Virus record (IMG/VR): IMGVR_UViG_2681813261_000016
Length of the DNA: 10,334 bases
Source of the DNA: a virus
Lineage: Duplodnaviria; Heunggongvirae; Uroviricota; Caudoviricetes
Reading direction: 5' to 3' (one strand)
Positions within the stretch are counted from its first letter, which is position 1, and every line of letters starts with the position of its first letter. The translations under genes and the position numbers were made by a program. Below are positions 3,760-8,950 of this stretch, piece after piece. Below the pieces are notes generated by a model. The model did not search any database. It was not told the DNA's origin and saw only the letters and a list, made by a program, of their open reading frames with translations.

Positions 3760-4191
3760 ATGATCACCGATATTTACGAGAAAATAATGTCTGATCTCGA
3801 GTTTGACCGAGACAATCTGGAAGAAGTCTGGCGTAGACAACCCCGCCTGTTGATGGAATATGGCTCAAAACTCGCTCATGCAGAAAGAAGTGTCGCAGAG
3901 GCAAAACTTAACCTTGAAGCTGTTGAAGCAAAGCTATACGACACAGAGCGTAAGAACTTGAGTATGAACGGCATTAAGTTCAACGAATCTGTACTGGACG
4001 CTAAGGTTAAAACAAACCCACAGTATCTGTCTAAACGGCAGAAGTTGGATGAAGCACGGCACATCGCAGACATATACAAACATGCTGTCGCCGCCTTTTC
4101 GCATCGCCGAGACATGATCGTTCAGGCGTCGAAGATGGCCATTGTTGAATTGGAGCGATTAGGCTCCGAACGCTTTATTACTCCCCGTTGA
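3760..4191 (+). CDS. Hypothetical protein, possibly a UvsY-like recombination mediator
   Basis: 143-aa ORF with RBS AAGGAAAG (3749-3756) and the conserved ...GCACATG start context. Size, predicted helical character and position next to the SSB and RecA genes are consistent with a UvsY-type mediator. Residue-level resemblance to T4 UvsY (AKLYDTERKNLSM, ESVLDAKVKTN) is from memory and weak. Confidence 0.7.
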   Translation: MITDIYEKIMSDLEFDRDNLEEVWRRQPRLLMEYGSKLAHAERSVAEAKLNLEAVEAKLYDTERKNLSMNGIKFNESVLDAKVKTNPQYLSKRQKLDEARHIADIYKHAVAAFSHRRDMIVQASKMAIVELERLGSERFITPR

Positions 4192-4194
4192 TTT

Positions 4195-4226
4195 TTGATA
4201 GATAATAAGTAAGTACTGATCTATCA
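4195..4226 (+). promoter_or_regulatory. Operator/promoter-like element: TTGATA plus 8-bp inverted repeat TGATAGAT / ATCTATCA flanking ATAAGTAAGTACT
   Basis: Inverted repeat arms at 4196-4203 and 4219-4226 with a 15-nt spacer containing ATAAGTA (4205-4211) and the palindrome AGTACT. TTGATA at 4195-4200 could serve as a -35. Sits 83 nt upstream of the SSB start. Confidence 0.35.
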
Positions 4227-4308
4227 TTGAACAGCTCGAAAGAGCCACGAATGAACGAAAGCCCAACGCGCATAGCGCCATCGGCCAAATCACAACAAGG
4301 AGAAACAC

Positions 4309-6342: not shown

Positions 6343-6608
6343 TGCTTAAATCGATTATCAATGGCGCTACAACCACCCCTACCCAACTGGCAAAAGAGAT
6401 TGTCTTTTATCACGGTGAATACGCTGTCATCGCACTGCCGTCAATTCTAGGCGCTGCCGGAATGAAAGCGACAGATCGCGAGTTTGGATTAGTCAGTGAG
6501 CAGGTCGTAAAAATCCTCGCTCGTGTATCCAGACTCCTTAACCATGATGCGATTTCATTCGACGAATCCGCCGCTTTAAAACGAATCAACGAAACAAAAG
6601 GAGCCTGA
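6342..6608 (+). CDS. Hypothetical small protein (88 aa), translationally coupled to the exonuclease gene
   Basis: ATG at 6342 overlaps the upstream TAA (TAATG at 6340-6344), preferred over the track's TTG at 6336. RBS-like GAAAGG at 6327-6332. No recognisable motifs. Immediately followed by the RecA gene with a 2-nt gap. Confidence 0.6.
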   Translation: MLKSIINGATTTPTQLAKEIVFYHGEYAVIALPSILGAAGMKATDREFGLVSEQVVKILARVSRLLNHDAISFDESAALKRINETKGA

Positions 6609-6610
6609 TC

Positions 6611-8950
6611 ATGGCAAAAGGAAAATCCGCACTGGCACTTGCTCTGAAAAAGAAAATCGGTAGCAACGACGAAATTCAGAAAGTAACTCATTGGATTGAT
6701 ACAGGCTTTCCACCGTTAAACAAAGCTATTTCTGGTCGTTACGATGGCGGCTTCCCATGTGGTCGTATCGTAGAAGTATTCGGGCCACCAAGCGCGGGGA
6801 AATGTGTTACCGCAGACACCATGCTGCTGACGGAGCGTGGAATGGTAACAGTGAAAGAGTTGTTTGAGATTGAAGGGTACAAAGCGACATGCACTACTCG
6901 CGATGTAGAGCATAACGTTGGACTCATCAATGAAAATGGCGTGATAGAGAAGACCTCACACCTGACATGGAACAACCGTCGCAAATTCAAGCGTATTAAG
7001 CTGGCATCAGGCGGTTATATCGAGGCTACGTTCCGTCACCCAATCCGTGTGGTTGACGACTTAGGTAATGTCGTCTGGCGACATGCTGAAAAAATCAGTG
7101 TAGGCGACACGATTCCTTCAATGGTTGGCACACATCAATTCGGCGATCAGCACCTGGATGCCAATATCGCAAAACTGATGGGCTATTTAATTGCTGACGG
7201 ATACGTGGCCTCTGAAAATTCAGTGAATTTTTCTAACACAGATCCTTTCATCAAGGATGAGTACTACCGCCTCATTTCGCTGGTATCAGACAAGATGCCA
7301 GTTACGAGAAAACATAACGGCTCGGAAGACCATGTGCTGTTTAGCAAAGAGGTGCGTTCGCTGCTTTTTAAAGAATATGGTCTGGAGTATGAGAAAGCTG
7401 CTGGCAAGCAGGTTCCGTTGAGTGTGCGTCGCGCCAATAGCGAGGCTCAAATTGCATTCCTTCGCGGCTACTTTGAGCTGGAATGCCACGTCAATGATGG
7501 TCGCTGCATTGAGGTTGTGAGCGCGAGTGGGCTGCTGCTACAGCAAATTCGCCTCATGCTCCTGAATCTGGGGATTACGTCAACTATCTCTGAAAAACAC
7601 GTCGCGGTTTATGAAAATACATATTACCGGCTGTCATTCAGTGGCTCTAATTACGACCTTTTTCTGTCAACGATTGGTTTCGAATCTCCGGCACGTTTAT
7701 CAGTGGCAACCAAACGGGACATTGGTTTTGACCGCACTTACTCAGGCTATGTTCCGCACATCAGCGGCTTAGTGAAATCACTCTACGAGTCGCTCACCAA
7801 GACCACCCGTGAAGACTACGCTCTGGTAGACCACGTTATTGGCCGCGGCGATCGTGTCGGAATAGACAAACTGCGAGAAATCTATGTCTCCTTCATTGGC
7901 AGAAAGAATCGTTTTAACGAGCATCTGTTTGCACAACTGGCAGCGGTAATTGGCTCTAACTTGTTCTACGACGAAGTCGTGGCTATTGAGGAAGGTGAAG
8001 CACCAACGTTCGACGTAGCGATGCCGGAAACACACTCTTTCTGGTCTAACGGGATTATCAGCCACAACACATTCCTTGCAACAGCAGCGATGATCTCCGC
8101 TCAAAAACAAGATGGTCTGGCGGTATTCCTCGATCATGAAAACAGTTTTGACGTTGGCCTGGCTGTAGCCAATGGCCTGAACGCAGATGAGGATGACGGT
8201 CAGTGGGTATACAAGCAGCCAGATACCTTCGAAGACTCTGTAGAGTTGATCGGCACAATACTTAAATTGGTTCGTGATGAAGAGCTTATCCCCGAATCAG
8301 CACCTATCTGTATCGTGGCTGACTCTCTTGCGTCTATGGTTCCGAACTCCAAAGCCGAGAAGTTCGAAAAGATGGCTGAAGGCACTGCCAAAGACAAAGA
8401 TCAGCTAAACATGAACGACAATACGGCACTGGCTCGTGCGACAAGTGCGAACTTCCCTACTCTGGCTTTGTGGGCACGCAAATACAACGCCTGCATCATC
8501 TTCTTGAATCAGGTTCGCACAAAAATCGGTGTAATGTTTGGCGACCCTACTACGTCGCCAGGTGGAGATTCACCGAAGTTCTACGCTTCTGTACGTATCC
8601 GTCTTGGTGCATCGGTGATGAAGGATGGTAAAGAGAAGATCGGCCAGGACGTAGGCGCAGAATGCATCAAAAACAAAGTTGCACCACCGTATGGCAAATG
8701 CACCTGGAAATTCTACTTCGATCCTACTCGTGGCCTCGACGTTATCGAATCGCTCGTCGAGTACATGCTGGAAGAAGGATACCTGCCAAAGAACGCCAGC
8801 GGGCGAGTTGAAATTGGTGACAAGAAATACACCAAATCGCAGATCGTCGAGATGTATCGGGAGAAGCCACTGGCTGAAATCATTGCGGCTTTGCAGGCAA
8901 TCGACGACCGAAGAGCAAAAGACAACCCCACCGAGTCAGTAGAAGAGTAA
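6611..8950 (+). CDS. recA: RecA-family recombinase (bacterial-RecA-like) interrupted by an in-frame intein
   Basis: Extein segments match RecA: RIVEVFGPPSAGK (P-loop, N-extein), then after the intein FLDHENSFD, QPDTFEDSVELI, IVADSLASMVP, IIFLNQVRTKIGVMFGDPTTSPGGDSPKFYASVRIRLG. Spliced product would be 357 aa. RBS AAAGGAG at 6597-6603. Confidence 0.9.
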   Translation: MAKGKSALALALKKKIGSNDEIQKVTHWIDTGFPPLNKAISGRYDGGFPCGRIVEVFGPPSAGKCVTADTMLLTERGMVTVKELFEIEGYKATCTTRDVEHNVGLINENGVIEKTSHLTWNNRRKFKRIKLASGGYIEATFRHPIRVVDDLGNVVWRHAEKISVGDTIPSMVGTHQFGDQHLDANIAKLMGYLIADGYVASENSVNFSNTDPFIKDEYYRLISLVSDKMPVTRKHNGSEDHVLFSKEVRSLLFKEYGLEYEKAAGKQVPLSVRRANSEAQIAFLRGYFELECHVNDGRCIEVVSASGLLLQQIRLMLLNLGITSTISEKHVAVYENTYYRLSFSGSNYDLFLSTIGFESPARLSVATKRDIGFDRTYSGYVPHISGLVKSLYESLTKTTREDYALVDHVIGRGDRVGIDKLREIYVSFIGRKNRFNEHLFAQLAAVIGSNLFYDEVVAIEEGEAPTFDVAMPETHSFWSNGIISHNTFLATAAMISAQKQDGLAVFLDHENSFDVGLAVANGLNADEDDGQWVYKQPDTFEDSVELIGTILKLVRDEELIPESAPICIVADSLASMVPNSKAEKFEKMAEGTAKDKDQLNMNDNTALARATSANFPTLALWARKYNACIIFLNQVRTKIGVMFGDPTTSPGGDSPKFYASVRIRLGASVMKDGKEKIGQDVGAECIKNKVAPPYGKCTWKFYFDPTRGLDVIESLVEYMLEEGYLPKNASGRVEIGDKKYTKSQIVEMYREKPLAEIIAALQAIDDRRAKDNPTESVEE
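6803..8068 (+). mobile_element. Intein (422 aa) with LAGLIDADG homing-endonuclease domain, inserted in the RecA Walker A/P-loop
   Basis: Begins with Cys (TGT 6803-6805) directly after GPPSAGK; ends ...ETHSFWSNGIISHN (His-Asn, 8063-8068) followed by Thr +1 (ACA 8069-8071). Contains block A CVTADTML, block B TFRHP, two LAGLIDADG-type motifs (KLMGYLIADGYV and AFLRGYFELECHV), and the terminal block. Confidence 0.8.

Follow-up and report, generated by a model that had tools for sequence, protein, structure and literature searches.

The DNA analysed here, called the window throughout, is a 10,334-bp stretch from a viral record (IMG/VR IMGVR_UViG_2681813261_000016). It is a piece of an SSU5-type phage-plasmid and is likely to hold the conserved replication and recombination cassette of that element, in which a UvsY-like mediator would load a RecA-like recombinase. 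We assigned the window to this group because of its identity to known members and its presence on Escherichia coli replicons of about 105-115 kb. It is 97.2% identical to Escherichia phage PhiR41_1 with 98% of its length covered; for phage Cyrano (pLF82) the identity is 95.2%, and for Salmonella phage SSU5 it is 82%. At least 80% of the window was found in 228 of 5,426 complete E. coli genomes (about 4%), and the best matches listed were replicons of ~105-115 kb. The SSU5 phage-plasmid group is well described, and the genes listed as persistent in the SSU5 supergroup include those for RecA-like proteins (PMC7969092).

All large open reading frames (ORFs) of the window lie on the + strand. Their order is DnaE, a UvsY-like protein of 143 amino acids (aa), a gp32-family single-stranded DNA (ssDNA)-binding protein (SSB), a flap endonuclease (FEN)-type 5' nuclease, a 90-aa ORF, and RecA (Table 1). 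The family identity of each of these proteins, backed by Pfam, PHROGs and NCBIfam, was established together with the UvsY fold, the intact catalytic and splicing motifs, and the strict gene order. Order and protein sequence are conserved across 80 related loci, and thus these are real genes rather than chance ORFs. A preliminary description of this DNA had marked a block at 3760-8950, a range that lies between the two terminator-like hairpins in Table 1 and has DnaE outside it.

The 143-aa protein is a remote homologue of UvsY, as judged from its fold, a weak reciprocal sequence signal, and its gene context. The preliminary description had proposed a UvsY-type mediator, and the profile comparisons bear this out. 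The protein matched phrog_2058 with an E-value of 2.9e-69 and, over 119 of its 143 aa, phrog_231 ('UvsY-like recombination mediator') with an E-value of 1.1e-4; the outcome that would have spoken against a UvsY-type mediator, an unrelated family in place of UvsY, did not arise. When 1.84 billion representative proteins were searched with a profile, 3,440 relatives were returned at E <= 0.001. The family is therefore large, amounting to at least 3,440 clusters when grouped at 50% identity, and its members are mostly labelled 'hypothetical' or 'unknown function'. Using hhalign, we found that a diverse alignment of this family matched an alignment of T4-type UvsY over 110 columns in full-length register (P 1.3e-4, probability 54%). 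The same comparison made with an alignment of close relatives (A1) gave a probability of 9.6% because the close relatives are too uniform. Reciprocal searches with hidden Markov models (HMMs) were run with about 1,950 unrelated ORFs as decoys. With the family HMM 24 T4-type UvsY proteins outscored every decoy, and with the T4-type UvsY HMM 25 family members did so (best E 5.2e-6).

The AlphaFold2 model of the 143-aa protein is a confident one; it contains four helices and has a predicted local distance difference test (pLDDT) value of 91.7. The UvsY fold, with its long helical hairpin, N- and C-terminal helices, and about 137 aa, is present in this protein. When the model was compared with the PDB using Foldseek, the first 19 matches were all T4 UvsY chains with template modelling (TM) scores of 0.65-0.93, and the next protein had a TM score of 0.51. 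Matches in BFVD included proteins of Herelleviridae as well as UvsY proteins annotated in T4-like phages or cyanophages. The gene has an AAGGA ribosome-binding site 7 nucleotides (nt) before its start, and both it and the SSB gene have good ribosome-binding sites.

Several points weigh against this assignment. The Pfam UvsY model PF11056 (gathering score 22.8 bits) did not match the 143-aa protein at E <= 0.1, nor was there an NCBIfam UvsY match; two relatives reached 14.9 and 19.1 bits in PF11056, compared with 179.6 bits for T4 UvsY. Since the 143-aa protein misses the Pfam threshold, we have filed it as UvsY-like and not as a PF11056 member. No UvsY was found among PDB sequences by phmmer with the 143-aa protein or by hmmsearch with the close-relative profile, and the PDB set used to train AlphaFold2 includes T4 UvsY. 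We found no experimental work in the literature on a UvsY-like protein with a RecA-like partner, or on any member of this family. The ssDNA-binding residues of T4 UvsY, which we take to be Lys58 and Arg60, are opposite D61 and E63 in the hhalign register, neither of which is basic. Near-invariant K49 and R64 of the UvsY-like family lie within a helical turn or two of these positions.

It could be argued that the 143-aa protein is a generic coiled-coil, for example a scaffold or a regulator, that does not act as a mediator, and that its likeness to UvsY reflects convergence on a simple helical hairpin. We consider this improbable. The unbroken run of UvsY chains at the top of the Foldseek matches and the ranking of the two families above every decoy in both directions argue against it, as does the position of the gene directly upstream of a gp32-type SSB gene and near a RecA-family recombinase gene in unrelated phage lineages.

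A gp32-like SSB had been recognised in the preliminary description and is present. It matched PF08804 over the full length of the model with an E-value of 1.6e-66 and 224.7 bits, close to the 226.4 bits of T4 gp32 itself. The protein contains a zinc-finger motif (C-x3-H-x5-C-x2-C, C74 to C86, at aa 74-86), a linker rich in Ala, Ser and Thr, and an acidic tail, TEDEGLDDLLRELDSL, at aa 327-342 (nt 5287-5334). The tail sequence GLDDLLRELDSL closely resembles the end of T4 gp32, DLDDLLNDL. In T4 the gp32 tail is the contact site of UvsY (PMC5928155). An LDDLL-type acidic motif is common to the tails of the gp32-family SSBs of the window, T4 and Pseudomonas phage nickie.

Long-form relatives of the UvsY-like protein, 250-430 aa in length, carry the UvsY-like domain at the C-terminus. 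At their N-terminus these proteins have an acidic stretch, D(D/E)ELEALMAELE, and after it a linker rich in Pro and Ala (alignment A5, columns 1-30). This N-terminal peptide resembles the LDDLL tail of gp32-type SSBs, as seen when window positions 5287-5334, columns 1-30 of A5 and positions 6158-6220 of locus L167 were compared. It may be an interaction peptide shared with the SSB tails, and it might be a tail mimic that competes with or bridges SSB contacts. It is conceivable, if rather doubtful, that the UvsY-fold mediator is matched to the gp32-type SSB and not to the recombinase subtype, and that the family serves phages in general to load any recombinase of the RecA superfamily onto DNA coated with gp32.

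The third protein of the trio is the recombinase, encoded by an ORF of 779 aa (6611-8950). This ORF matched PF00154 with an E-value of 3.3e-36 and 125.5 bits (cutoff 27); for comparison, T4 UvsX scored 47 bits and a Bacillus phage RecA scored 256 bits. Its Walker B (IVADS) and L2 region, FLNQVRTKIGVMFGDPTTSPGG, are near-identical to those of E. coli RecA. The preliminary description had called it closer to bacterial RecA than to UvsX and had overlooked a 422-aa LAGLIDADG intein in the P-loop. The ORF has 779 aa only because this intein interrupts Walker A; the spliced recombinase would have 357 aa, with GPPSAGKT as its Walker A.

When the intein-free 357-aa sequence was compared with the PDB, single-copy RecA chains scored 109-124 bits and UvsX-type chains scored 28-44 bits. 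It is 28-36% identical to cellular RecA and 18.8% identical to T4 UvsX. The Pfam output for the recombinase contained no T4_UVSX_C domain (PF21134), which T4 UvsX has at 132.5 bits. The recombinase also missed the RecA equivalog TIGR02012, scoring 153.7 bits against a cutoff of 325.3. We placed it in a neighbour-joining tree of 320 columns with 100-200 bootstraps, rooted on T4 UvsX. The tree took in 24 diverse bacterial RecAs from a genome scan; archaeal RadA and eukaryotic Rad51 were left out. The cassette recombinases formed one clade, supported at 98.5-100%, which lay outside that of cellular RecA (91.5% support) and far from the pair formed by T4 and cyanophage UvsX (100% support). The branching order of the cassette clade, the RecA of Bacillus phage Goe26 and cellular RecA had 35% support only. 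Both the scores and the tree agree with the earlier proposal that the recombinase is nearer to RecA than to UvsX, and it did not group within UvsX. The accompanying label of bacterial-type holds in that the protein falls on the RecA side; it does not hold for bacterial RecA itself, since the protein belongs to its own phage clade and fails the equivalog cutoff. The recombinase represents a distinct phage RecA-like lineage and not bacterial RecA. Capture of a host RecA was rejected on account of the failed equivalog cutoff together with the tree position outside the cellular RecA clade.

The intein sits in frame directly after GPPSAGK and splits the Walker A motif. It scored above cutoff with the intein N- and C-terminal models TIGR01445 and TIGR01443. 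All splicing blocks are present, including Cys1, block B (TFRHP), the terminal His-Asn and a Thr at +1, and the LAGLIDADG motifs lie at aa 189-198 and 283-292 of the ORF. The element is polymorphic, being present in 19 of 72 related loci, and its exteins are 99-100% identical to intein-free alleles. The intein remains 96-100% identical where the exteins are only 93-95% identical to those of the window, a pattern that fits a mobile element. Inteins of E. coli, Enterobacter and Salmonella have been catalogued as 'RecA c2 (65-486)' by Topilina et al. 2015 (PMC4513877), and the coordinates of the window intein, aa 65-486, match these entries exactly. In that study the protein that carries the c2 intein was taken for bacterial RecA; in the window it is clearly the recombinase of a phage-plasmid. 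Other P-loop inteins of RecA and RadA at insertion point c, including that of Pyrococcus horikoshii (Pho) RadA, are likewise inserted after the Walker A lysine. The intein of Pho RadA is a mini-intein, whereas the window intein retains the LAGLIDADG endonuclease domain. Its nearest phage relatives are helicase inteins of Herelleviridae (30-34% identity).

RefSeq (PGAP) mislabels the whole recombinase ORF as 'LAGLIDADG family homing endonuclease'. This name, and an insertion point within the ATP-binding loop, could be taken to mean that a homing-endonuclease element has inactivated the recombinase gene and that the UvsY-like protein and SSB serve only host RecA or replication. Such an account is very improbable given an in-frame insertion with Cys1, block B, His-Asn and Thr+1 that passes both terminal intein models, exteins almost identical to intein-free alleles, and an earlier listing of the same element as a RecA intein at site c2 (PMC4513877).

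In the 80 SSU5-like loci the series UvsY-like protein, SSB, FEN, 90-aa ORF and RecA is kept with almost no variation; a few loci have deletions. Distant loci were retrieved by a search with long-form UvsY-like relatives, and 37 loci of at least 15 kb, on viral contigs of ~105-118 kb, were examined. The order DnaE, UvsY-like protein, gp32 SSB, FEN and RecA-like recombinase was seen in 35 of the 37; in the other two the SSB alone went undetected. The proteins of these distant cassettes share only 30-55% identity, and the ~110-kb phages that carry them include named Pseudomonas and Rhizobium phages. Pseudomonas phage nickie has the same order, with CobT/CobS ahead as in SSU5 and one additional ORF (174 aa) that separates the UvsY-like gene from the SSB gene. 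In Herelleviridae, the UvsY-like gene immediately precedes the genes for the SSB and a RecA-family recombinase. The family HMM of the UvsY-like protein matched Bacillus phage Goe26 (E 4.5e-32) and Staphylococcus phage HSA30 (E 2.9e-26). The Goe26 SSB is of the gp32 type and belongs to phrog_1192, as does the window SSB; the HSA30 protein in the SSB position had no Pfam match.

Because the same trio recurs in SSU5-like elements, distant ~110-kb phages, nickie and Herelleviridae, we conclude that the combination of UvsY-like protein, gp32 and RecA-family recombinase is a common phage design joined to different polymerases. The T4 set of UvsX, UvsY and gp32 is its best-studied and most diverged version. 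The preliminary description had portrayed the cassette as a hybrid of T4-type and bacterial-type parts, a view that did not survive the conserved order in distant phages, the recurrence of the trio in Herelleviridae and the separate recombinase clade. That it is a recent chimera of T4-derived accessory genes with a polymerase and recombinase captured from a bacterial host deserves scarcely any credence: DnaE and RecA are indeed typical cellular families and gp32 and UvsY were first described in T4, but the five-gene order survives in ~110-kb phages whose proteins are 30-55% identical, the recombinases group in a single clade outside cellular RecA, and both equivalog scores are low (153.7 against 325.3 bits for the recombinase and 679 against 1002 bits for DnaE).

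Taken as a replication and recombination cassette served by a UvsY-like mediator, the genes suggest the following sequence of events. Single-stranded phage DNA would be coated by the gp32-family SSB. The UvsY-like protein would bind both the ssDNA and the acidic SSB tail, loosen the SSB-ssDNA complex, and nucleate or load the RecA-like recombinase. This recombinase would be made as a 779-aa precursor that becomes active only once the P-loop intein has been spliced out. Its filament would invade homologous duplex DNA to form D-loops. These would serve repair as well as recombination-primed replication, the latter carried out by the phage's own DnaE, with the FEN nuclease removing primers and flaps. 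For mediator activity, contact with the SSB tail, oligomerisation and the link to replication we infer from T4 biochemistry (PMC5928155).

The T4 presynaptic system fills the same three roles that are encoded in the window. The window SSB belongs to the same Pfam family as T4 gp32, with as good a score, the zinc motif and the LDDLL acidic tail, and the window mediator has the UvsY fold over almost its whole length. The two systems differ in that the window recombinase is RecA-like, with 19% identity to UvsX and no T4_UVSX_C in the Pfam output, and in that the mediator is below Pfam UvsY detection. The trio is clustered with DnaE and FEN in the window, whereas uvsY, uvsX and gene 32 are far apart in T4. 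The polymerase is of the B-family in T4 and of the C-family in the window. Herelleviridae (SPO1-, Twort- and K-like) share with the window the UvsY-like family, a RecA-family recombinase and adjacent genes in the same order. Unlike the element studied here, these myoviruses of Firmicutes are virulent and have an A-family polymerase, they have no FEN gene between the SSB and recombinase genes, and the HSA30 recombinase leans to the UvsX side of the tree (83% support). The SSU5-like phage-plasmids, including SSU5, Cyrano/pLF82, PhiR41_1 and pHCM2-type plasmids, are the same type of element, with 82-98% nucleotide identity and the same order. Among these, the window and Cyrano carry the RecA intein and SSU5 does not. 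The window differs from these relatives in having no cargo between DnaE and the UvsY-like gene and in a 1-nt frameshift in an SPFH gene.

Table 1. Features of the window and the basis on which each was called.
Feature	Coordinates	Strand	Basis or remark
DnaE-type (C-family) DNA polymerase, 1172 aa, with C-terminal family-4 uracil-DNA glycosylase (UDG)-like domain	116..3634	+	Pfam, NCBIfam, phrog_405
Terminator-like hairpin, 10-bp perfect, weak T tail	3641..3665	+	right after DnaE stop codon
9-bp perfect inverted repeat CTTATCATC/GATGATAAG (arms 3706-3714 / 3736-3744)	3706..3744	+	TATAAT between arms at 3722-3727
UvsY-like recombination mediator (predicted), 143 aa, all-helical	3760..4191	+	PHROGs, fold, hhalign, HMM ranking, context
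gp32-family ssDNA-binding protein, 342 aa	4309..5337	+	PF08804, phrog_1192
5'-3' exonuclease / flap endonuclease, 331 aa	5347..6342	+	PF02739 + PF01367
Conserved 90-aa ORF	6336..6608	+	phrog_2207 E 2.4e-54, unknown function
RecA N-extein, aa 1-64, ends in GPPSAGK of Walker A	6611..6802	+	motif positions
Class-1 intein with LAGLIDADG homing-endonuclease domain, 422 aa (aa 65-486)	6803..8068	+	PF14890, PF14528, TIGR01445, TIGR01443
RecA C-extein, aa 487-779 + stop codon, Walker B IVADS, L2 region FLNQVRTKIGVMFGDPTTSPGG	8069..8950	+	PF00154, E. coli RecA alignment
Intrinsic-terminator-like hairpin, 9 bp, 6 G-C pairs, then TTTTAT	8955..8975	+	closes block

The polymerase is of the C-family, as had been proposed. 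Its Pfam domains are PHP, DNA_pol3_alpha (E 1.3e-73), finger and HHH_6. It scored 632.7 bits with TIGR00594, above the cutoff of 434.35, and 679 bits with the equivalog NF004226, below the cutoff of 1002, and it matched phrog_405 over its full length. The C-terminus (aa ~1027-1171, nt ~3194-3631) resembles family-4 UDGs, with a TIGR00758 match below cutoff (E 2.6e-7) and a match to phrog_13175. This parallels the UDG-like domain fused to the A-family polymerases of SPO1-like phages. An insert of ~830 nt breaks the DnaE gene at about aa 776-789 in some close relatives (L006 at 5891-6720, L007, L010, L013, L014, L038, L050 and L054); the window DnaE is intact. The insert encodes an HNH endonuclease as a free-standing ORF, bordered by stop codons, and these could be cases of a split gene or an intron.

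The nuclease is of the FEN type, with 87.0 bits for PF02739 (cutoff 34.3) and 46.2 bits for PF01367 (cutoff 40). Its start codon is uncertain; the Cyrano record begins 17 codons further downstream. The preliminary description had grouped it with T4-like factors. Its FEN character stands and its T4-like character does not: the closest PDB matches are the T5 D15 5'-exonuclease (1EXN/1UT5) and Pol I 5' nucleases, and it is not specifically T4-like because T4 RNase H is missing from the PDB matches at E <= 0.001. The 90-aa ORF overlaps the stop codon of the FEN gene, and its own end is 2 nt short of the recA start. It was found in the SSU5-like loci whose sequence extends that far and was not detected in the distant ~105-118 kb cassettes. 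It had no match in Pfam, NCBIfam or PADLOC, and its single-sequence AlphaFold2 model was unreliable (pLDDT 58.8). A role of the small proteins in a defence system was considered and dropped, PADLOC having given nothing.

The 125-nt spacer between DnaE and the UvsY-like gene (3635-3759) is without cargo in the window and is a cargo insertion site in relatives, where Cyrano has a HicAB toxin-antitoxin and SSU5 has three ORFs (L001 at 6622-8598; L002 at 6634-8224). The inverted repeat and TATAAT in this spacer may form a promoter with an operator, as read from the sequence. An exact copy of the repeat occurs in only six related loci, and promoter-like sites in 3500-9300 are no commoner than in shuffled sequence. 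An Rfam scan of the window gave no matches. CobT/CobS-like cobaltochelatase genes are directly upstream of DnaE in SSU5, Cyrano and nickie (L002 at 1-2934; L167 at 1-2079), and the conserved block therefore reaches past the left end of the window. Downstream of the RecA ORF are a small membrane protein gene and then the frameshifted SPFH gene. This SPFH/band-7 lipoprotein gene (9247-10076) is broken near 9694 into ORFs of 151 and 118 aa by a 1-nt deletion (GGACAACG to GGAC-ACG) relative to Cyrano and locus L005, in both of which it is intact (276 aa). The break marks a pseudogene or else reflects an error in the sequencing.

What the cassette represents is the ordinary core of a common family of phage-plasmids, already known at the level of annotation. 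The Cyrano record annotates a 'UvsY recombination mediator', 'SSB T4 gp32-like', 'Exonuclease' and 'RecA', and the trio of UvsY-like protein, SSB and recombinase has been annotated in Enterococcus phages of the Herelleviridae (PMC10054541; PMC11210271). The pairing of UvsY with RecA had been put forward as an interesting one; it is widespread and was present in these records beforehand. Elsewhere the UvsY-like gene is called 'hypothetical protein' in most phage records, and PHROGs lists phrog_2058, 1069, 9245 and 4969 as 'unknown function'.

These findings do not overturn current views. Their practical value is in annotation, as the UvsY-like mediator and the intein-containing RecA-like recombinase make the reading of the cassette coherent, and about 4% of complete E. 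coli genomes contain this cassette, as do many ~110-kb phages. The trio of T4 exemplifies a phage design that is widespread and no T4 speciality. Cyrano or SSU5 would provide a tractable E. coli system for the action of a UvsY-type mediator on a RecA-like filament.

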